Positions 1 to 7,973 of a DNA stretch of 7,973 nucleotides are shown here, piece after piece (positions within the stretch are counted from its first letter, which is position 1; the number at the start of each line of letters is the position of its first letter). The notes under the pieces are model-generated. The model saw only the letters and a list, made by a program, of their open reading frames with translations. It had not been told where the DNA came from and ran no database searches. Made by a program: the position numbers and the translations under genes. This stretch comes from a virus. Its lineage: Duplodnaviria > Heunggongvirae > Uroviricota > Caudoviricetes. The stretch spans positions 1 through 7,973 of IMG/VR virus record IMGVR_UViG_2645727743_000016; one strand, 5' to 3'.

Positions 1-79
1 TCCCCTGGATCCAGACGGCTTCCAGCGTTTTTAGACGTAAATGCTCGCCGCTTTTGCCTGTAATTTCCGGATATATCAT
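1..79 (-). CDS. Possible 5' end of the next gene downstream of rusA, truncated by the window edge
   Basis: Minus-strand ATG at 77-79, 9 nt after the rusA stop, open to the window edge (about 26 codons, MIYPEITGKSGEHLRLKTLEAVWIQG). No recognisable motif; a Q-antiterminator-position gene by synteny only. Confidence 0.2.
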   Translation of the reverse strand, partial: MIYPEITGKSGEHLRLKTLEAVWIQG

Positions 80-87
80 ATTTACGA

Positions 88-453
88 TCACTCACTCTCA
101 ATTTTGTAAATCTTCACGCCCAGCCGCCCCCCAGGAACGAGCTGACCGCGCACAATATTGATTTCATCAAACTGCTCGTCGTCTATGAGAAGTCCGGCAT
201 GCGTCAGCGCATCCAGTGGTGCTTTCAGGATATTGTCCAGGTCACGACGACGCTTATCCGGTGGCTCTGCAATAATCTTTATCGCCAACCTTCCGGACAG
301 GCTTAATTTCAGCCGCTGCTGGCGAACAATAAGCGCCACAGCACGGCGATAACGCTCACCGGCTTTTGATACAAAATATGTGCTGCCACGACGACGCCAG
401 TAAGTGTTCACCGTTGGCGGGTAAGGCAAAACAAATTCTATGCGTTCAGTCAT
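88..453 (-). CDS. rusA: RusA-family Holliday junction resolvase
   Basis: 121-aa ORF whose translation shows the RusA pattern (PYPPTVNTYWRRRG near the N-terminus, DKRRRDLDNILKAPLDALTHAGLLIDDEQ acidic catalytic core). ATG at 451-453 directly abuts the stop of the upstream gene (TGA then ATG). Recognised from memory of the RusA family, not searched. Confidence 0.88.
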   Translation of the reverse strand: MTERIEFVLPYPPTVNTYWRRRGSTYFVSKAGERYRRAVALIVRQQRLKLSLSGRLAIKIIAEPPDKRRRDLDNILKAPLDALTHAGLLIDDEQFDEINIVRGQLVPGGRLGVKIYKIESE

Positions 454-1512
454 TCATGCTTTCCACTTCAGAACACCCGAATTTCTCGCGTGCATTAAAA
501 AACGAATCAGCAACAACAGCTGGCTGCCGTGTTTTTCTTCAAAATCTTTTACCCCGGCGTGTAGTTCGCTATGGCATTTACGGCACAGCGGAATAACAAA
601 CAAATCATCAGCCTTTGTTCCCATCCCTCCCAGTCCATGACCAATGATGTGATGCGGATCATCTGCCTGATTGCCACACGTCATGCATTTCTGCGTTTTT
701 ACCCAGCGCGTGTATACAGGCATCTCTTCCCGTTGTGGTTTCTGGCGCTGGAGATACTGAGCCGGTGACTCCGGATCAACGGCAATGCTGACCACCGTCT
801 TTTCCTGTGGTGGATTCTGTTGCTGGTGGGCGTGAGGCAACGGCGCAATATTTTTTGTGCGCTGCTTCAGTATGCTGATGGCGGTCTGCTCTCCCGGTAC
901 GATGTCGCTCTCGCGGTATACTGAGCGGATTTTTTCACCCGGAAGCTTCAGGATTCGACGCGCCATATTTTCGGTCATGGCATCCACTACATCATTTACA
1001 GAAGCCCAGCAGCACAATTCAGCCAGCGATAATTCCCGCTCCTGCGTGCCATTCACTGCATGGCGTATGACGTCAATCATCCATGCTGACAGGTTTTGAT
1101 GAGCAAGTTGCCCGAGTGATTCGGAGGTCTGGTCACGCAGCTGGTTGTCGCAGTGCCAGCACAACACCATTGCGCCGATACCATAACGATGTATGACGGT
1201 TTCGCTGTGATGATAATCGCCGTGTGGCCACTGGCAGGATTTAACGTGGCGTAACAGCCAGTCAGACAGCGCACCAGCACCGCCAGCAGCACGAATCACC
1301 CGCTCATCGCTGAAAAATGGCAGTAGTGATTTATCCTCCGCCAATGGCTGGCGAACGGCAGGAACGACTCCGGACGGCAGACCGCGCATGCTTTTCGGTT
1401 CCGGCTCCACCAGAACTCGAGGGTTATGAAATACCTGCATGGATTCACGGCCCGGTTTTAGCACCACCAGCCCAAGTTCCGGTACCGGAACAGGTCGAAG
1501 TAATACCCGCAC
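454..1512 (-). CDS. ydfU: DUF968 family phage protein (YdfU-like) with a C-terminal Cys/His HNH-like zinc-binding motif
   Basis: 352-aa ORF. C-terminal CMTCGNQADDPHH...PLCRKCHSELH is typical of DUF968/YdfU-like prophage proteins. Start uncertain: GTG at 1510-1512 directly after the upstream stop, or ATG at 1438-1440 (MQVFHNP). Lies immediately upstream of rusA, as in Qin-type prophages. Confidence 0.75.
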   Translation of the reverse strand: MRVLLRPVPVPELGLVVLKPGRESMQVFHNPRVLVEPEPKSMRGLPSGVVPAVRQPLAEDKSLLPFFSDERVIRAAGGAGALSDWLLRHVKSCQWPHGDYHHSETVIHRYGIGAMVLCWHCDNQLRDQTSESLGQLAHQNLSAWMIDVIRHAVNGTQERELSLAELCCWASVNDVVDAMTENMARRILKLPGEKIRSVYRESDIVPGEQTAISILKQRTKNIAPLPHAHQQQNPPQEKTVVSIAVDPESPAQYLQRQKPQREEMPVYTRWVKTQKCMTCGNQADDPHHIIGHGLGGMGTKADDLFVIPLCRKCHSELHAGVKDFEEKHGSQLLLLIRFLMHARNSGVLKWKA

Positions 1513-1513
1513 G

Positions 1514-1792
1514 TTACCTCCAGATGCGTTGCTGGAATGTGCGGGACGGACGCGGTGGGCGTTCGGAATAAGGGAGTCTGACGTAGATTATCCAGAGACG
1601 ATAATCGAGGCTGAGGGCTTTCTTAATCTCGTATCCGTGTCTGCGGTAGCGCTGAATCAGCCATTCAGCCTGTTCTTCGGTGCAGGGATCGTGCTGATAC
1701 CAGTCATATTTGAATGCATGAGAGCGCCGCCCGTGTCTGCTGGCAAAGGCGGCTGAATTATCAGAATTGTGTAGTCTGGAATTTTGCGCCAT
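1514..1792 (-). CDS. Hypothetical phage protein (92 aa)
   Basis: ATG at 1790-1792 with GGAG about 10 nt upstream on the minus strand. Stop is adjacent to the DUF968 start, consistent with translational coupling. No recognisable motif. Confidence 0.55.
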   Translation of the reverse strand: MAQNSRLHNSDNSAAFASRHGRRSHAFKYDWYQHDPCTEEQAEWLIQRYRRHGYEIKKALSLDYRLWIIYVRLPYSERPPRPSRTFQQRIWR

Positions 1793-1858
1793 CGGCTTTC
1801 TCCGGTGGCACAGTGTTACTCAACAGGGGTTCAGCCCTGCGCTGAATTGTAGATGAAT

Positions 1859-2119
1859 TCACTCATCTTCAAAAGCAGAAAAACCAGCCTTAATCTCAGC
1901 TTCTTTCAGAGACGGCAACGATGTGACAAATTCATTTGCACGCAAAATAAAACCATCCGTCACAAGCCCATCCACCAAATGAATTAACGCAGCTCCACTC
2001 TTCCTTTGTTGAGACTGTAAACATTTAATACGGCAGTGGCTGACAATTGCGCCATTCTCAACGCGCACAGTATAGAGGCCATCTTCACTAAAAATTTCAC
2101 GTAATTCTTTGATTTTCAT
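1859..2119 (-). CDS. Hypothetical small phage protein (86 aa), rem-like position relative to hok and ydfU
   Basis: ATG at 2117-2119 with AAGGA about 9 nt upstream on the minus strand (the ORF track begins one codon earlier at a TTG). Sits between the Doc cassette terminator and the DUF968 gene. Identity not recognised; the rem comparison is positional inference only. Confidence 0.55.
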   Translation of the reverse strand: MKIKELREIFSEDGLYTVRVENGAIVSHCRIKCLQSQQRKSGAALIHLVDGLVTDGFILRANEFVTSLPSLKEAEIKAGFSAFEDE

Positions 2120-2200
2120 CAACAGAATCCTTCCAGATAAATAGCACTCCCCTGTTTGGGGTCCATCCCTCTTCTCCCTGCGCGCTACTTAAGTGCATCG

Positions 2201-2228
2201 ATTCTAGTCAGGCATACCAGCTAATCAA
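2201..2228 (-). promoter_or_regulatory. Candidate sigma70 promoter for the downstream minus-strand genes (86 aa, 92 aa, DUF968, rusA)
   Basis: Minus-strand reading: TTGATT, 16-nt spacer, TAGAAT (plus-strand 2223-2228 and 2201-2206). Lies just downstream of the strong terminator at 2270-2305 and about 80 nt upstream of the ATG at 2119. Sequence pattern only. Confidence 0.3.
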
Positions 2229-2269
2229 CAAACCCTGGTCGGTTAAATAGAAGAATTGGCTAAAATTTA

Positions 2270-2305
2270 GTCCATTAAAATAAAAAACCCGCCGAAGCGG
2301 GTTTT
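2270..2305 (-). terminator. Rho-independent terminator downstream of the Fic/Doc gene (hairpin is symmetric, potentially bidirectional)
   Basis: AAAACCCGC-cgaa-GCGGGTTTT perfect 9-bp stem at 2284-2305, followed on the minus strand by TTTTTTATTTTAA. Located 15 nt after the Doc stop at 2320. Confidence 0.65.
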
Positions 2306-2319
2306 CATTGGAAGCACCT

Positions 2320-2805
2320 TTAGTTTTGCTGTTCTATTTTAAGCTTGATAGTTTCATACAAAACAATAGTTGCGCTTGTTTTACATAATTCCCGGCTGTC
2401 ATACGCGCGAGACCAATAACACAACCAGTTCTCGAGATCTTCTCGAGTATAGGTTTTGCAGGCCAGTCCCTCTGCCATTTCCACGATTTCATCGCCTGGT
2501 GCTGTTAACTCATAGCCATTCAACAACAAGAAGACGTAACCAGCCATCATAGCTGTTCGTTTGTTCGCATTAGCAAACGGATGATTCTGAATCAGACTTT
2601 CAATCAATACCGATGCCAGTACAAACATGTCATTAGTCTGTTCATACCATCGAACCATGCTGGGACGGGCCTGAGAAGAACTTAAGTTATCTGGACTCAG
2701 AACACCAACGGGCTCATCTGGCGTCTGTAATTCAATTAGGGAATGATTGATTTCAACAAGATCATCAACCGTAAGGTAATGCACTCCTTCAACAATCTCA
2801 GCCAT
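2320..2805 (-). CDS. doc: Fic/Doc family toxin (death-on-curing-like)
   Basis: Translation contains HPFANANKRTAMMAGYVFLLLNGYEL, matching the Fic/Doc motif HxFx(D/N)(A/G)NKR. ATG at 2803-2805 (the ORF track starts 3 codons earlier at a TTG, 2814). Small partner gene ends 18 nt upstream. Confidence 0.82.
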   Translation of the reverse strand: MAEIVEGVHYLTVDDLVEINHSLIELQTPDEPVGVLSPDNLSSSQARPSMVRWYEQTNDMFVLASVLIESLIQNHPFANANKRTAMMAGYVFLLLNGYELTAPGDEIVEMAEGLACKTYTREDLENWLCYWSRAYDSRELCKTSATIVLYETIKLKIEQQN

Positions 2806-2823
2806 AGAGTACAATACCCATCA

Positions 2824-3003
2824 TTACACTTTTGAAAGTTCTTCCATGGCTTTCTCATAACGAGAAAAACCGAAATCAAAAGCATTTTTCACTTGTTCAC
2901 GATGTGCGCAGTTTTCATCAATCACTGGGCGAGGGACTGCCACAACGCTTTTATCGCGAGGCGGAATACTCAACCGCGTGTGTTTTTTGAGTGGGCAGCT
3001 CAT
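2824..3003 (-). CDS. Putative antitoxin partner of the Fic/Doc toxin (59 aa)
   Basis: ATG at 3001-3003 with AAGGA about 8 nt upstream; the ORF track's longer 75-aa form starts at TTG 3051. Small gene immediately upstream of the toxin is the canonical type II arrangement. Sequence family not recognised. Confidence 0.5.
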   Translation of the reverse strand: MSCPLKKHTRLSIPPRDKSVVAVPRPVIDENCAHREQVKNAFDFGFSRYEKAMEELSKV

Positions 3004-3119
3004 ACTAATGAGTCCTTTTGTTTTCCGATTATTGGCAAAGCCATGCACCAAATTTGATACAAAATAGATCTGTTTGAGATCCTTAGGATAGTCTCATGGT
3101 AGCTAAAATTACAACCTCA

Positions 3120-3150
3120 TAATGCGACGAAAAACCCGCCGAAGCGGGTT
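3120..3150 (-). terminator. Rho-independent terminator downstream of hok (hok mRNA 3' hairpin)
   Basis: CCCGC-cgaa-GCGGG hairpin at 3135-3148 with AA/TT extension, followed on the minus strand by TTTTTCG. Lies about 70 nt after the hok stop. The 21-bp core (3130-3150) is identical to 2283-2303. Confidence 0.6.
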
Positions 3151-3218
3151 AAGTGCGGGTGCGTTGAGGATGCCTGACACATCAGAGGCGGCGAGGGATT
3201 TCTCCCCCGCCGGGTCTC

Positions 3219-3374
3219 TTACTCCTCAGGTTCGTAAGCTGTGAAGACAGCGACCTCCGTCTGGCCGGTTCGGATTCGTACCTCGCAGAGGTCTTTCCTC
3301 GTTACCAGTGCCGTCACTATGACGGTTAAACAGATGACGATAAGGGCGATTAACATCGCCTTTTGCTGCTTCAT
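3219..3374 (-). CDS. hokD: Hok/Gef family type I toxin (51 aa), HokD/RelF-like
   Basis: Translation MKQQKAMLIALIVICLTVIVTALVTRKDLCEVRIRTGQTEVAVFTAYEPEE matches HokD/RelF as I recall it (not searched). ATG at 3372-3374 with AAGGAG about 10 nt upstream. An in-frame upstream ATG at 3429-3431 would give a 70-codon form. Confidence 0.88.
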   Translation of the reverse strand: MKQQKAMLIALIVICLTVIVTALVTRKDLCEVRIRTGQTEVAVFTAYEPEE

Positions 3375-3633
3375 AGCCTGCTTCTCCTTGCCTTTCGGCA
3401 CGTAAGAGGCTAACCTACATGTGTTCAGCATGGATTGAGCCTCAGATTAATGTTAAGCGTCTTGCAGGACGCGTAATGTTAACTGGGGCTTTTCTCTATC
3501 TGCCTTTTGGTGTTCATGCCTGAGACAGATAGCCTCAAGCACCCACAGTCATTCTACTTAACTAAGATTTCCCTGCAAACCGTTTTTGTCCGGCACAGTA
3601 AATATCCAACTAAACCAATAGCGTTCGCTGTAT

Positions 3634-3813
3634 TTACCGCCAGTATTCAATGCACGTGACCGCCATGAACACCCCTAAAAAAAGGGCATTTATATGTCCA
3701 AACATTAATATCAAAACATCAATTTTTTCCATATACCTTGCTGTGAAGATGATGGGCATACATGATGCGAACAACCAGAACGCAACAAACAAAAACTGCA
3801 ATGCGTTTTTCAT
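3634..3813 (-). CDS. Possible small hydrophobic (membrane) protein, 59 aa, in an AT-rich island
   Basis: ATG at 3811-3813 with GGGGGA about 5 nt upstream; the ORF track's 72-aa form starts at GTG 3852. Translation is strongly hydrophobic (LQFLFVAFWLFASCMPIIF...ALFLGVFMAVTCI). AT-rich sequence gives long ORFs by chance on both strands, so the call is weak. Confidence 0.3.
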   Translation of the reverse strand: MKNALQFLFVAFWLFASCMPIIFTARYMEKIDVLILMFGHINALFLGVFMAVTCIEYWR

Positions 3814-4024
3814 TATTCCCCCTACAATCAATGTGCAATTACATTTAAACACACCTCAATTTGGCCGGACATATAAATATCTAAACCAGAAAAAATCACT
3901 TACATAGCGTTACAAACTCTTTAGTCTAAATATTCATCGTAAAACATTCCCCATACTTATCAGCCCACTCTACGCCAGGTAGCTCATTGCCTTATCTGGG
4001 AATCTGTAATCAGGTTTCCGTTTT

Positions 4025-4447
4025 TCAGTCGGCTGGTCGTTTAACCGGCATAGTTAACCCATTAATCTGGTTGCCGGATGCTGGTGGATTTTCGCGTTTT
4101 AGTTGTTCATAAAAGTGCACAGCTTTAACCAGTTCTTCTGATGTAACAGGGACTGGTGGGGCAGTGAATAAGGCCTGAATTTCATAGTTCGGCCTGTCGT
4201 TACAATCCTCTTTTTTCGGTACATATTTCCAGTCACCAACCCACAACTCCCCCTGAGAGTCCATAACACCTTTTTTCACGTAGCGATATCGCCACGCTAT
4301 CGGCTCTGCTTCCAGCGATGCCAGTGCAATTTTGAATAACTCGCCCTCTACTCGCGCCATCCCTGAATTGGGGTGGCATTTCGTAATCGCTATTTTTAAT
4401 TTGGCTTCTTCGATTAATTGTTCTTTTGTTAATTCAGTCATTTTCAT
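4025..4447 (-). CDS. Hypothetical phage protein (140 aa)
   Basis: Two in-frame ATGs at 4445-4447 and 4439-4441 (MKM), with AAAGGG about 7 nt upstream and AGGAGG further upstream. No recognisable motif. Confidence 0.6.
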   Translation of the reverse strand: MKMTELTKEQLIEEAKLKIAITKCHPNSGMARVEGELFKIALASLEAEPIAWRYRYVKKGVMDSQGELWVGDWKYVPKKEDCNDRPNYEIQALFTAPPVPVTSEELVKAVHFYEQLKRENPPASGNQINGLTMPVKRPAD

Positions 4448-4537
4448 TACCGCCCTTTCAGGCGGCCTCCTGATGTTCTGAGGGTGCAGAAATCCCTCCG
4501 GTTAAGGATTAAATTTTATTTGCTGTGCTAAATTTAA

Positions 4538-4993
4538 TTATTCAGTTTTTATTCCTGCTCTCAAAACAGCCTCTGCCATTCTGATATCCGGATTTTCTGA
4601 AATCATCTTTTCCGGCGAGTCGCAATCACCACCACATTCAGTTATGCGTTCATGACCAAAACGAATTGTGGTTTTGTGCGCATTAATCATTTGTGTAAGC
4701 GCGTCTGTCAATTCTGCAATGCGTTTATCTTTAACTTCCAGCTCTTTCAGTAAAGCCAGTACGTCAGGATCGCTAACATCAACGACGGTTACGCGCGATT
4801 TCAGGTAATGCTCATCCGCAAAAGTTCGACCAGTTTTAAAATATCCATCATCCCCCTCACCTGCGCAGGCATACACAATATGCGTTCTGGAAAATATGCG
4901 CTGTATCGACATTTCATCGCCGCAAACAGGACATTCCGGCACCTGAATTGGTGAATAACGTTCACGTAATGCCTGGTAATTAGTCTTGCACAC
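4538..4993 (-). CDS. Hypothetical phage protein (151 aa) with paired-Cys motifs and a central coiled-coil-like segment
   Basis: GTG at 4991-4993 with AGGAGA about 7 nt upstream; overlaps the upstream gene's 3' end by 14 nt. Contains ECPVCGDE and ECGGDCDSPE pairs flanking LALLKELEVKDKRIAELTDALTQMI. Family not recognised. Confidence 0.6.
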   Translation of the reverse strand: MCKTNYQALRERYSPIQVPECPVCGDEMSIQRIFSRTHIVYACAGEGDDGYFKTGRTFADEHYLKSRVTVVDVSDPDVLALLKELEVKDKRIAELTDALTQMINAHKTTIRFGHERITECGGDCDSPEKMISENPDIRMAEAVLRAGIKTE

Positions 4994-5285
4994 TGGCTGT
5001 CTCCTGAAAAATCACCGCATGCCCCAGTTTCTCCGCCAGCGCCAGTTCTGCCTTAGCGCCTGCTGACCGCTGCCAGCCTTTCAGCATGTAAATCGCATCC
5101 ACACAACGAATCATTGCCATGCAAATATCCATGTAGTGCGGCTGTGTCAGCCCGTCCGGAAGTACTGCCGGGTTTAAGACGGTATGCCCTTCCCGTTTCA
5201 GTTCCTCTTCTGCCTTGTGAAACGCCTCACGGTTGAAATTTTCATACCCCGTCATTGGACCGGCGATATAAACCCTCACCCTCAC
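4980..5285 (-). CDS. DUF4406 protein (nucleoside 2-deoxyribosyltransferase-like fold)
   Basis: N-terminal VYIAGPMTG...NFNREAF is the hallmark of DUF4406/NDT-like proteins, recognised from memory. GTG start at 5283-5285 overlaps the upstream stop as GTGA; AGGAGG lies 7 nt upstream. Confidence 0.72.
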   Translation of the reverse strand: MRVRVYIAGPMTGYENFNREAFHKAEEELKREGHTVLNPAVLPDGLTQPHYMDICMAMIRCVDAIYMLKGWQRSAGAKAELALAEKLGHAVIFQETASVQD

Positions 5286-5698
5286 GCCATCACCTCCTGA
5301 AAATTACCCTGATAAAACGCCAGCACACGCTGCATAACCTTGCTTTTCCGGCACTCGAGACAGATTATGTTCTGACGCCTGTCGTAGTGGCGTATCTCTC
5401 CATCTGGTAATGAATAAATCAGGCCAGGGTCGCTCTTCTTTTTCGCTGCACCTTTAGACATCTCTTTATGGGCTTTTATCCAGTCTTTACGTGCCTGCTC
5501 AGAAGGGAATATTCCATGCCCTGAACCATATACAACACCACTGTCTACCAGTTCTTTCGCCAGAACTTCAATCAGATGTCTCGTCGCCCCTGTTTCATTT
5601 TCCAGTTGTTTACGCGTTTTCCTACCATCTCTGCGTACCAGTTCCACAATACGCGCCTTTACTTCTTCCCGTTGTTCGGGAGTAAAAACTTTTACCAT
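5282..5698 (-). CDS. Hypothetical phage protein (138 aa), possible N-terminal winged-helix-like segment
   Basis: ATG at 5696-5698 with a strong AGGAGG 5 nt upstream. Stop overlaps the start of the DUF4406 gene. N-terminal segment TRKQLENETGATRHLIEVLAKELVDSGVV looks helix-turn-helix-like; this is inference. Confidence 0.65.
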   Translation of the reverse strand: MVKVFTPEQREEVKARIVELVRRDGRKTRKQLENETGATRHLIEVLAKELVDSGVVYGSGHGIFPSEQARKDWIKAHKEMSKGAAKKKSDPGLIYSLPDGEIRHYDRRQNIICLECRKSKVMQRVLAFYQGNFQEVMA

Positions 5699-5712
5699 AA
5701 GTCCTCCTGAAA

Positions 5713-6459
5713 TTACTTCACAACCCTCAGGTGTCTGACATTCGAACGCCAGCTCTCCCAGTTAAAATTCACCCAGCGACCACCGTTCATGACCATGCGG
5801 TCCATCACACGCTCGCCAAGAAGCGTACTCATCGCTACGTGGTTCAGGTTCGTCAGCATTCCGACACTACGCATCGAAGCCGTTCTGCGGTCGACTATCT
5901 GGTTCAGTGTGACCTGCTCGTTGCGCGTATCCCGCTGCATTCCGATTTCATCCAGGACAAGCAGGTCAACATCACACAACCCCTGTAAAAATTTTTCGCC
6001 TGAGTTTTTGTTGTCGTAGCTGTTGTGTAACGCCAGCATCACATCAGCCACCGTTATCACAATCACGCTGCGACCTTTCGCCAGAAGATGATTGCCAATG
6101 GCGGCTGCAAGGTGGTTCTTTCCGGTACCCGGCTTACCGCTGAACACAAAATTCGTGCACCCGGTCATCAGTTCGTCAGCGATGGATTTTGCCTGGCTCA
6201 GCGCATGTTTTTGCCCGTCGTTCTGCACCTGATAATTCGCAAACGAGCATTTGCTGTGCAGAGGCTGGATGCCCGAACGATTCAGGATTTTTTCCACCCG
6301 CAACTGGCGATTCTGGCGGTTGATCTCCTCGCTACGTTTTCGCCCTTCAGCCAGTTGCCACTCGCGCCACTCATCCACTGTCCGGTACGGCGCGATTACA
6401 TGCTGCGGGGTCAGCTTACGGATACGCTCAAGAACACCACCTGCCGCGATATTTTTCAT
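5713..6459 (-). CDS. DnaC/IstB-family AAA+ helicase loader (phage replication protein P analogue)
   Basis: Walker A GKPGTGKNHLAAAIG and Walker B LLVLDEIG in a 248-aa ORF. ATG at 6457-6459 with GGGGG about 10 nt upstream. Lies immediately downstream of the O-like initiator gene. Confidence 0.9.
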   Translation of the reverse strand: MKNIAAGGVLERIRKLTPQHVIAPYRTVDEWREWQLAEGRKRSEEINRQNRQLRVEKILNRSGIQPLHSKCSFANYQVQNDGQKHALSQAKSIADELMTGCTNFVFSGKPGTGKNHLAAAIGNHLLAKGRSVIVITVADVMLALHNSYDNKNSGEKFLQGLCDVDLLVLDEIGMQRDTRNEQVTLNQIVDRRTASMRSVGMLTNLNHVAMSTLLGERVMDRMVMNGGRWVNFNWESWRSNVRHLRVVK

Positions 6460-6465
6460 GGCCCG

Positions 6466-7431
6466 TTACCCCCTGAACCCCGGCGGAATTTCGGTATCCG
6501 GCTCAGAAATATGATTCACACAACGCTGTACAGACGAACGCCCCAGGCGGATAACCAGTTCATCCCATTTTCCGCGAAGCTTTGACGGACTCATGATATT
6601 TTTTACCCAGAATGGATCCCGCTGCGCCCGACCAAACATTTCACAAATTTGTCTGTGAGTTCTGCCATCCAGCATCCGCATTGTGCGCACGTCGTTGGCC
6701 CATGCGGTCCAGTTGGGTTCTTTCGGTCGCGAAATCTCGCCATCATCGCTGGCGGCCTGCTCGTAAAGACTCACGATTCGCCCCCAGATCCACTGCGCAC
6801 ACGCCAAATCTTCCTGGTTGCCCCACTGGCGTTTTTTTGCACTGAACACAACCGCGTCAGGGTGTCGGGTTAAAAAATCCTGTTCAACCGTCTGCGGGTC
6901 CGGTTGCGAAGCTTCCGGACGAGAAGTGTTTTTATTCTCTGTAGTAATCTCTGTTGTATTCTCTGTAAGATCATCAGGCCATTTTGACCCGATGACATTG
7001 AGTCGTTTTGAACCAATGGAACGTGCCATTTTGGCCTCTTCCATCGTGTCATTCTGACCTGATGGAGCAGCGCATTTTGACCTGATGGATTCGCTCACTT
7101 TGCCACCATCTAAAAGCTCGCTCTCGTAATTAATCGTGTAAAAATTAGTCATATCACGCTTTGATTTATTGAGCTTTTCGCAACGCAAAAGCCCCAGCGT
7201 TTTCAGACTGGCAAATGCGCGTTTTAACGTTGACTCTGACCAGAACGGGAACTGCTCCAGCCATTGTTCTGTTGTGTTATAAATCCAGCGAACACCATCA
7301 CATTCCATGCCGGAACCGGTATCTCTCAACCAGTAGTGCAGTTGTTGCAAAACAATGGCTTCGTTTAAGCCAATTTTCATTGCCAGCTGCGTGTTTATAA
7401 CCAGTGGGCGTTCAGCAAAAAGAAGACTCAT
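6466..7431 (-). CDS. Phage replication initiator / replisome organiser (lambda O-like)
   Basis: N-terminal MSLLFAERPLVINTQLAMKIGLNEAIVLQQLHYWL resembles phage replisome-organiser N-terminal domains. An iteron array and an AT-rich tract sit in the central linker-coding region. Preferred start is ATG 7429-7431; the ORF track's 7485 start is 18 codons upstream. Confidence 0.82.
   Translation of the reverse strand: MSLLFAERPLVINTQLAMKIGLNEAIVLQQLHYWLRDTGSGMECDGVRWIYNTTEQWLEQFPFWSESTLKRAFASLKTLGLLRCEKLNKSKRDMTNFYTINYESELLDGGKVSESIRSKCAAPSGQNDTMEEAKMARSIGSKRLNVIGSKWPDDLTENTTEITTENKNTSRPEASQPDPQTVEQDFLTRHPDAVVFSAKKRQWGNQEDLACAQWIWGRIVSLYEQAASDDGEISRPKEPNWTAWANDVRTMRMLDGRTHRQICEMFGRAQRDPFWVKNIMSPSKLRGKWDELVIRLGRSSVQRCVNHISEPDTEIPPGFRG
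6927..6970. repeat. AT-rich tract with three TCTCTGT repeats at 12-bp spacing (origin unwinding element candidate)
   Basis: TCTCTGT at 6936-6942, 6948-6954 and 6960-6966 within gtgtttttattctctgtagtaatctctgttgtattctctgtaaga. Directly adjacent to the iteron array, on the side lambda-type origins carry their AT-rich region. Confidence 0.5.
6980..7093. repeat. Iteron array: five direct repeats at about 23-bp periodicity (candidate origin of replication inside the O-like gene)
   Basis: Repeats begin at 6980 (CATTTTGACCCGATGACATTG), 7004 (TCGTTTTGAACCAATGGAACG), 7027 (CATTTTGGCCTCTTCCATCG), 7050 (CATTCTGACCTGATGGAGCAG) and 7073 (CATTTTGACCTGATGGATTCG). Approximate consensus CATTTTGACCYGATGR. Confidence 0.6.
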
Positions 7432-7873
7432 AATTCCATCCAGCTTTTTGTTGGTATTGCTGTCGATACGCAAGCTTGAAAGCAATTGCTTTTTCTATAA
7501 GTTCGTCAGTTTCACGATCTACAACGGCAGGATCTGCAAAAAGCAGTCCGGATTCCACCACATCGCCATATTCTTTATTTAACCCGGCGATCATGTACGT
7601 AATACTTTTTCCATCACTGATCTCACGATACAACCTGAAATCACTAATCCGGATAGCCTCCATAATTGCAGGCACTAGCGCTGTGAACTTTTCACGCTTA
7701 TCCCTGGTGTCGATAGCCTTCCAGCGTTCGAATATCTTCACTCGATTAACGCTAAGCGCTCGCTGATCAACCGCGCCACCTTCATATGTGACACGCTGAA
7801 CATCGATGTTCGGGCGCTCTTTCAAAGCCCAGAATGCTTCAGTGATTAATATCGTCGCCTGCTCCTGTGTCAT
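7412..7873 (-). CDS. Hypothetical phage protein (153 aa) immediately upstream of the replication initiator
   Basis: ATG at 7871-7873. Its 3' end overlaps the preferred O-like start by 20 nt, out of frame. No recognisable motif; occupies the position of cII/YdaT-type regulators in lambdoid prophages, which is synteny inference only. Confidence 0.6.
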   Translation of the reverse strand: MTQEQATILITEAFWALKERPNIDVQRVTYEGGAVDQRALSVNRVKIFERWKAIDTRDKREKFTALVPAIMEAIRISDFRLYREISDGKSITYMIAGLNKEYGDVVESGLLFADPAVVDRETDELIEKAIAFKLAYRQQYQQKAGWNYESSFC

Positions 7874-7973
7874 TCCTGGTTGGATTTGCCCCTATATTTC
7901 CAGACATCTGTTATCACTTAACCCATTACAAGCCCGCTGCCGCAGATATTCCCGTGGCGAGCGATAACCCAGC

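Follow-up and report, generated by a model that had tools for sequence, protein, structure and literature searches.

A 151-residue E. coli prophage protein is an Ead/Ea22-like family member whose N-terminal cassette probably holds a zinc of its own

To which family does a small, cysteine-rich prophage protein belong, and do its two cysteine pairs, placed on either side of a long helix, hold one metal between them? This question is raised by the minus-strand open reading frame (ORF) at positions 4538-4993 of the window analysed here, a stretch of 7,973 nucleotides that makes up positions 1 to 7,973 of the IMG/VR virus record IMGVR_UViG_2645727743_000016 (Caudoviricetes). An earlier note, made from the letters of the window, had listed an ORF of 151 amino acids (aa) at exactly these positions, without its strand, and had suggested that its motifs ECPVCGDE and ECGGDCDSPE could together form a zinc ribbon around the central helix LALLKELEVKDKRIAELTDALTQMI, in a protein of no recognised family that might bind or inhibit a host factor. 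The elements on which that suggestion was built are all present: the motifs correspond to residues 20-27 (Cys21 and Cys24) and 119-128 (Cys120 and Cys124), and the central helix to residues 79-103, within a helix of 44 residues (76-119) that AlphaFold2 predicts with a predicted local distance difference test (pLDDT) score of 96-98. Beyond these motifs, the protein also contains Cys2, Cys43, and four histidines.

We found that this protein belongs to the Ead/Ea22 family, a mosaic group of early proteins from lambdoid prophages, and is an ordinary member that had already been annotated. It matches Pfam PF13935 (Ead/Ea22-like; InterPro IPR025153) with 71.4 bits against a cut-off of 27 (E = 1.5e-19), with residues 4-105 aligned to profile positions 3-90 of 139, and it is 100% identical to RefSeq WP_000335372.1, which is named “ead/Ea22-like family protein”. 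The statement that no family could be recognised was, therefore, mistaken, and clear homology to a characterised family, which the earlier note had itself named as evidence against its proposal, is what the PF13935 match supplies. Two hallmarks of the family are present, namely the N-terminal helix ‘xI(N/D)xQALRE’, here TNYQALRERY at residues 4-13, and the ‘(D/N)PxxVLALLDE’ junction into the coiled coil, here DPDVLALLKELE at residues 75-86, which hhalign aligns with the canonical Ead N-modules at 84% probability (E = 7e-6). PF13935 is also passed by 51 of 65 diverse relatives sharing the N-terminal part of the protein, and the PHROG families 368 and 1138, both without an assigned function, match as well. 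At the DNA level, several complete E. coli genomes carry a 100% identical copy, and the gene is present and annotated in 29 complete genomes of this species; a homology search found 1410 homologues, most of which match only the first 60-70% of the protein. This conservation is stronger evidence that the ORF is real than any chance estimate made from its cysteines, of which there are 6 in 151 residues (P ~ 0.007 at a background frequency of 1.1%), with two C-x2-4-C pairs at least 50 aa apart being seen in 2.6% of shuffles of the same composition. Searches of NCBIfam and PADLOC gave zero matches for the protein and, thus, no link to known defence systems; against the phage collection, megablast with the gene found nothing, and protein-level tblastn found only 11 phage records. 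A full-text literature search for the phrase ‘Ead Ea22-like’ returned no papers.

The N-terminal part of the protein, which we call the N-cassette (residues 1-75), is where a zinc site is most plausible. An exhaustive HMMER search with residues 1-78 (E <= 0.001) found this cassette in 243 clusters at 50% identity, and conservation was counted in 139 usable cassette representatives, clustered at the same identity. Cys21, His62, Asp60, Gly55, Pro19, and Ser66 are present in all 139 and Cys24 and Cys43 in 138 each, while the invariant columns of two MAFFT alignments, with identities down to 28%, are P19, C21, C24, C43, G55, R56, D60, H62, S66, and V78. Given a diverse alignment, AlphaFold2 predicts the monomer with a mean pLDDT of 92.5, this alignment having remedied the poor model of the cassette (pLDDT 50-66) obtained from a shallow one. 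The predicted cassette begins with a helix at residues 6-13 and continues with bridge residues 20 and 27 around the CPVCG turn, a hairpin (29-33 and 38-42) followed directly by Cys43, a small loop with bridge residues 46 and 52, a helix at 61-66 bearing His62, and a strand at 68-71. In this model, the CPxCG knuckle (Cys21 and Cys24), Cys43 at the end of the hairpin, and His62 on the next helix would most likely hold one structural zinc. The near-invariance of these four residues throughout the cassette suggests that it probably holds a zinc by itself, as a Cys3-His site and possibly as a Cys4 site in some relatives. One cassette relative has been automatically named ‘Zn-finger/Zn-ribbon’ by the Joint Genome Institute (JGI), and weak Pfam matches to zinc-ribbon and related families all fall below threshold (YdjO 16.9 vs. 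27, DUF2089 16.7 vs. 27.6, SprT 13.3 vs. 28.1, and Zn_ribbon_recom at most 17 vs. 25.3 bits), so that the zinc-ribbon fold class of the cassette is supported weakly. Its likeness to classical zinc ribbons such as LysW, ribosomal L37Ae, Rpb9, and PF13408 lies in the CPxCG knuckle, the beta-hairpin, and a further Cys, with weak and never significant matches; but whereas a classical C4 ribbon has two CxxC knuckles on two beta-hairpins, here there is one knuckle, and the second half-site would be Cys43 with the distant His62. The cassette might have derived by divergence from the canonical Ead ‘ATPGEW’ N-module, but we rejected this idea, given that hhalign aligns only the ‘DVLALLDE’ junction of the two, at the 84% probability given above. 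The Cys3-His signature of this widespread alternative Ead N-cassette is a mildly new point, not described in the portions of the Ea22 literature reached by full-text searches.

The second Cys pair lies in a different and rarer module, the C-module (residues 88-151), which a profile search found in 57 proteins, mostly of 78-118 aa, from Enterobacter, Cronobacter, Citrobacter, and E. coli. Every one of these 57 C-modules has exactly two Cys: Cys124, which is invariant, is accompanied by Cys109 in 50 proteins and by Cys120 in the other 7, and never by both. Position 120 is Cys in 7, Leu in 49, and Ile in 1, and the seven with Cys120 have Thr or Val at position 109; His114 alternates with Tyr among the same proteins. 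What looks like a relocation of the partner Cys can be followed by comparing positions 4616-4669 of the window (residues 109-126) with proteins P0269-P0314. This relocatable second Cys is the other mildly new point, with the reservation that the pattern follows just two clades and could stem from one event. No N-terminal CxxC is present in 51 of the 57 C-module proteins, and most of these 51 are devoid of any N-terminal Cys. Heptad periodicity extends over residues 78-103 of the long helix, and in the predicted monomer the C-terminal part of this helix pairs intramolecularly with helices 127-150. The C-module would fold back on the long helix to give a helical hairpin, whose apex bears Cys120 and Cys124. 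In this monomer model, the motifs of the two pairs are placed at opposite ends of the 44-residue helix, which would be ~66 Å long by geometric inference at 1.5 Å per residue. On these sequence comparisons, the independence of the N-cassette and the Cys pattern of the C-module together rule out an obligatory shared zinc site: the two Cys pairs belong to separate, independently shuffled modules and would share no metal. The earlier idea of zinc binding, then, is plausible for the N-cassette alone and not supported for the two pairs jointly.

The explanation that we favour, and regard as likely, is that of a three-module Ead/Ea22-like accessory protein with a zinc in its N-cassette and a role as an early adaptor. 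The protein would have been assembled from three independently recombining modules, the N-cassette, the heptad helix, and the C-module, with the LALLDELE junction leading into the long heptad helix, which probably drives oligomerisation; the Ea22 proteins of phages lambda and P27 are tetramers (PMC7093339, PMC10834534). It would act as an early-expressed, non-essential, oligomeric adaptor, binding its protein partners by way of the terminal modules and nudging the outcome of the lysis-lysogeny decision or of host survival. By analogy, an early accessory role that biases the lysis-lysogeny decision is probable, given that lambda and Shiga-toxin (Stx) phage Ea22 are described as favouring lysogeny and host survival (PMC7093339, PMC10834534), and binding of a host factor, as supposed earlier for this ORF, would be compatible with what is proposed for Ea22.

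Several observations weigh against this explanation. With regard to the metal, 54% of the representatives have a fourth Cys, in the motif ‘GC(H/Y)Y’, at a place where this protein has Tyr51, which leaves the identity of the fourth ligand, and even zinc binding here, uncertain. Sequence searches of the PDB, with the single sequence and with the N-cassette profile, gave only chance-level matches to CxxCG knuckles (E >= 0.09), and Foldseek with the better model gave matches at E >= 0.38 and no significant solved zinc ribbon. With regard to function, pairwise BLAST against lambda Ea22 is not significant, and lambda ea22 lies between exo and xis, whereas the present gene follows the replication genes in the early-right operon; because of both, the transfer of a pro-lysogenic function to this protein is weak. 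Evidence for a pro-lysogenic phenotype upon deletion or over-expression is confined to lambda, Phi24B, and related phages (PMC7093339), and two-hybrid screens found no partner for lambda Ea22 (PMC10834534).

Among the alternatives, that of a single zinc bound by Cys21/Cys24 and Cys120/Cys124 together, either within one chain and clamping the helix or between the chains of an antiparallel oligomer, is scarcely credible. It can appeal to the presence of all four Cys here and in the close orthologues P0002 and P0004, to the paired Cys spacing being uncommon by chance (the 2.6% of shuffles), and to an antiparallel oligomer being compatible with a structure prediction that covers the monomer only, but it is contradicted by the 51 of 57 C-module proteins that have no N-terminal CxxC and the 50 of 57 that lack Cys120, by the 243 clusters in which the N-cassette, with its own invariant Cys3-His set, precedes dozens of unrelated C-termini, and by the far placement of the motifs on the ~66 Å helix of the monomer model. 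A different use of the second pair is conceivable in which, besides the N-terminal site, Cys124 and either Cys120 or Cys109 form an inter-subunit site at the apex, which could be a Zn(Cys)4 ‘hook’ or else a disulfide whose reversible formation controls oligomerisation. We consider this unlikely; a pair of Cys is kept in every C-module, and the conserved CxxC that Rad50-type zinc hooks have at the apex of their antiparallel coiled coil was not found in it. That such Cys features as the Cys3-His site, or Cys124 with Cys109 or Cys120, are not purely structural but functional thiol switches, whose oxidation, e.g., by H2O2, would free the zinc or form an inter-subunit disulfide and so shift the oligomeric state, is very improbable in our judgement; if true, it would mean direct sensing of oxidative stress by Ead/Ea22-like proteins. 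Such stress is known to induce prophages of the lambdoid and Stx types, and a dampening of it by Ea22 has been proposed (discussion of PMC10834534).

Two further alternatives concern the N-cassette itself. It might bind no metal at all, being a zinc-ribbon-like fold that lost its zinc, with the remaining Cys being structural or relics, and this we judge unlikely, if the least so of the alternatives. Ribbon-like domains without zinc do exist, as in the C-terminal domains of topoisomerase I, and the replacement of the fourth Cys by Tyr51 here, its variability in 46% of the family, and the sub-threshold score of every zinc-ribbon Pfam match all agree with such a loss; what argues against it is that each of the three Cys and His62 is kept in no fewer than 138 of the 139 relatives, with identities as low as 28% and a cassette that is otherwise variable, which is hard to explain without a common ligand role. 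Alternatively, the cassette might be a nucleic-acid-binding zinc ribbon of the large serine recombinase or topoisomerase type, tethering the variable C-module to DNA at sites of replication or recombination. For this, 35 of 65 relatives match PF13408 (Zn_ribbon_recom) weakly, with a best E of 6e-4, PHROG 95, an integrase family, matches at E = 0.05, Foldseek gave low-probability matches to the Bxb1 and PhiC31 integrases, the gene adjoins replication genes here and recombination genes in ES18, and the arginines R10, R12, R56, and R67 are conserved. However, the PF13408 scores are 14-17 bits against a cut-off of 25.3, all matches are below the curated cut-offs, Foldseek with the better model gives no integrase match, and the prophage uses an integrase of the tyrosine type. 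The acidity of the cassette (isoelectric point, pI, 5.6; net charge -2.3) and of the whole protein (pI 5.3) also argues mildly against DNA binding, and we hold this nucleic-acid-binding role to be improbable. Membership of the cassette among the zinc ribbons of large serine recombinases was rejected because all scores are below threshold.

The modular shuffling that underlies the three-module explanation is apparent in both terminal parts. When the sequences downstream of the DPDV motif were compared, the same N-cassette was found fused to dozens of unrelated coiled-coil blocks and C-terminal domains; in relative P0070, it is joined to the C-terminal domain of lambda Ea22 itself, and in ES18 gp41, to a lambda-type coiled coil. 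The C-module, in turn, is clearly swappable and occurs with other N-termini: P0036 has it on the canonical Ead ‘ATPGEW’ N-module, and in P0099, P0121 to P0123, and 46 others it follows a short N-terminus without Cys. This agrees with the mosaic layout described for Ea22, in which a variable N-region is followed by a coiled coil and by exchangeable C-terminal domains that have a +GE motif in common at their ends (PMC7093339, PMC10834534). The present protein ends in AGIKTE, i.e., K-T-E, as against the K/R-G-E (+GE) of the family, and many relatives end in ...AGIRIKGE or ...GKGE. A tail of the form ‘...AGI(R/K)(I/V)KGE’, or a near variant of it (here at 4541-4558, minus strand), terminates Ead/Ea22-like proteins whose C-terminal domains are otherwise unrelated; the +GE motif is noted without explanation in PMC7093339, and the common tail may mark a joint left by recombination instead of serving as a functional peptide. 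Among the alternative C-terminal domains found on the same N-cassette, one carries a Walker-A-like ‘GFTGCGKS’ (P0018, P0043, P0075, and others), and that of P0098 carries a DnaJ-like ‘CPECFG..CDTCDGSG’, so that the variable domains may include enzymatic or additional metal-binding ones.

Compared with known members of the family, lambda Ea22 (NP_040612, 182 aa) belongs to the same Pfam family and is likewise an early, non-essential, mosaic lambdoid protein (PMC7093339, PMC10834534). Both proteins have the ‘I-N-x-Q-ALRE’ helix, the ‘LLDE’ junction to a long coiled coil, and an ‘...AGI+K-x-E’ tail. In contrast, the N-region of lambda Ea22 is truncated and has no zinc-ribbon-like cassette, and its C-terminal domain is a mixed alpha/beta dimer by nuclear magnetic resonance, whereas that of the present protein is predicted to be a small, all-helical hairpin; a C-terminal domain of the lambda type was not found here, there being no similarity to lambda Ea22 beyond chance and no PDB sequence match. 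Among phages, the same zinc-ribbon-like N-cassette is found in ES18 gp41, annotated as similar to P22 eaD, with 68% identity over residues 1-92, in ST64B Sb32, with 43% identity over residues 1-133, and in the match in phage D6. Cys21, Cys24, Cys43, and His62 are all kept in ES18 gp41, the only phage match whose sequence was checked for them. These three matches are annotated as ead/Ea22-like, but they are longer (205-274 aa) and have other coiled-coil blocks and C-terminal domains, and the genes of ES18 and ST64B, unlike the present one, occupy the classical early-left ‘ea’ region beside xis and int. The Ea22 proteins of the Stx phages 933W, Phi24B, and P27 resemble it in the family signature, the coiled coil, the variable acidic C-terminal domains, and a folded N-terminal segment that is absent from lambda Ea22, and they end in +GE, where the present protein has K-T-E (PMC7093339, PMC10834534). 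No Stx phage is among the 11 phage records matched by tblastn with this protein, and the ‘ATPGEW’ modules align to the zinc cassette only at the junction; from both points we infer that the N-segment of Stx-phage Ea22 is of the canonical kind and not detectably homologous to this cassette.

The result is chiefly a correction, in that the ORF encodes an annotated Ead/Ea22 family member and not an orphan zinc protein. Beyond this, Ea22-type proteins influence the induction of Shiga-toxin prophages, and the predictions of a Cys3-His cassette and of a two-Cys C-module could guide the design of Ea22-type constructs, structural work, and the finding of partners.

The coordinates of the gene, its modules, and its neighbours are collected in Table 1.

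Table 1. The Ead/Ea22-like gene, its predicted modules and candidate metal ligands, and neighbouring genes in the 7,973-nucleotide window
Feature	Position	Strand	Evidence
Complete coding sequence, 151-aa Ead/Ea22-like family protein	4538..4993	minus	ORF list, sequence, Pfam PF13935, identity to WP_000335372.1
Shine-Dalgarno AGGAGA, 6-nt spacer to GTG	5000..5005	minus	sequence reading
N-terminal cassette, residues 1-75, zinc-ribbon-like	4769..4993	minus	AlphaFold2 pLDDT 79-95, conservation
Cys21-Pro-Val-Cys24 codons, first zinc knuckle (predicted)	4922..4933	minus	C21 139/139, C24 138/139
Cys43 codon, motif Y-x-C-x-G, end of second hairpin strand; predicted third zinc ligand	4865..4867	minus	138/139
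His62 codon, motif A-D-x-H-Y; candidate fourth zinc ligand, inferred	4808..4810	minus	139/139
Long helix, residues 76-119, starting at family junction DPDVLALL(K/D)ELE	4637..4768	minus	AlphaFold2 pLDDT 96-98
Rare C-module, residues 88-151: end of long helix, apex loop 120-126, return helices 127-132 and 135-150, AGIKTE end	4541..4732	minus	
Cys120-Gly-Gly-Asp-Cys124 codons, hairpin apex	4622..4636	minus	C124 57/57, C120 7/57
YdaT-like gene	7412-7873	minus	Pfam E = 3e-6
Replisome organiser, 339 aa	6466-7485	minus	
DnaC/IstB-like ATPase	5713-6459	minus	
DUF977 gene	5282-5698	minus	
DUF4406 gene	4980-5285	minus	
140-aa hypothetical protein gene	4025-4447	minus	PHROG 660, no Pfam family
hok, Hok/Gef type I toxin	3219-3431	minus	Pfam E = 3e-23
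Doc/Fic ‘death-on-curing’ toxin	2320-2814	minus	Pfam Fic, E = 1.2e-11
DUF968 gene	454-1512	minus	
rusA (RusA)	88-453	minus	

The ORF starts with GTG at 4991-4993 and stops with TAA at 4538-4540 on the minus strand, and its first 14 nt are shared with the end of the upstream DUF4406 gene, stop codon included, an overlap that points to translational coupling of the two genes. The window is coded almost wholly on the minus strand and comes from a Rac-like lambdoid prophage of E. coli, being 99% identical over its whole length to annotated prophages of E. coli strains E200139 and AST85. Within the early-right operon, the Ead/Ea22-like gene is preceded by the replisome organiser, DnaC-like, DUF977, and DUF4406 genes and followed by hok, DUF968, and rusA. 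A search for a conserved neighbour gave none, the flanking genes differing among the window, ES18, and ST64B.

Some minor observations concern these neighbours. Three toxin-related genes, of the Hok/Gef, YdaT-like, and Doc types, flank the replication module within the same 8 kb; a 75-aa ORF without a family match (2824-3051, minus strand) precedes the Doc/Fic gene and could be its antitoxin. The interval from ead to the DUF968 gene is, by annotation comparison, ~1.26 kb longer than in the similar E200086 prophage, in which no Doc/Fic gene is annotated at this place. The last 22 residues of the replisome organiser (6466-6531, minus strand) weakly match the extreme C-terminus of DnaT (NCBIfam NF002770, profile positions 158-179 of 179, E = 0.003), and this likeness may represent a shared docking peptide. 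Finally, the 140-aa hypothetical protein encoded directly downstream of the Ead/Ea22-like gene and the C-terminal part of the Ead/Ea22-like protein P0024 have in common a segment of 33 residues, ‘...LVKAV(H/R)FYEQ(L/V)KREN..’, with 61% identity (E = 3e-9), which indicates that pieces of the pool of Ead C-terminal domains exist as separate genes too.
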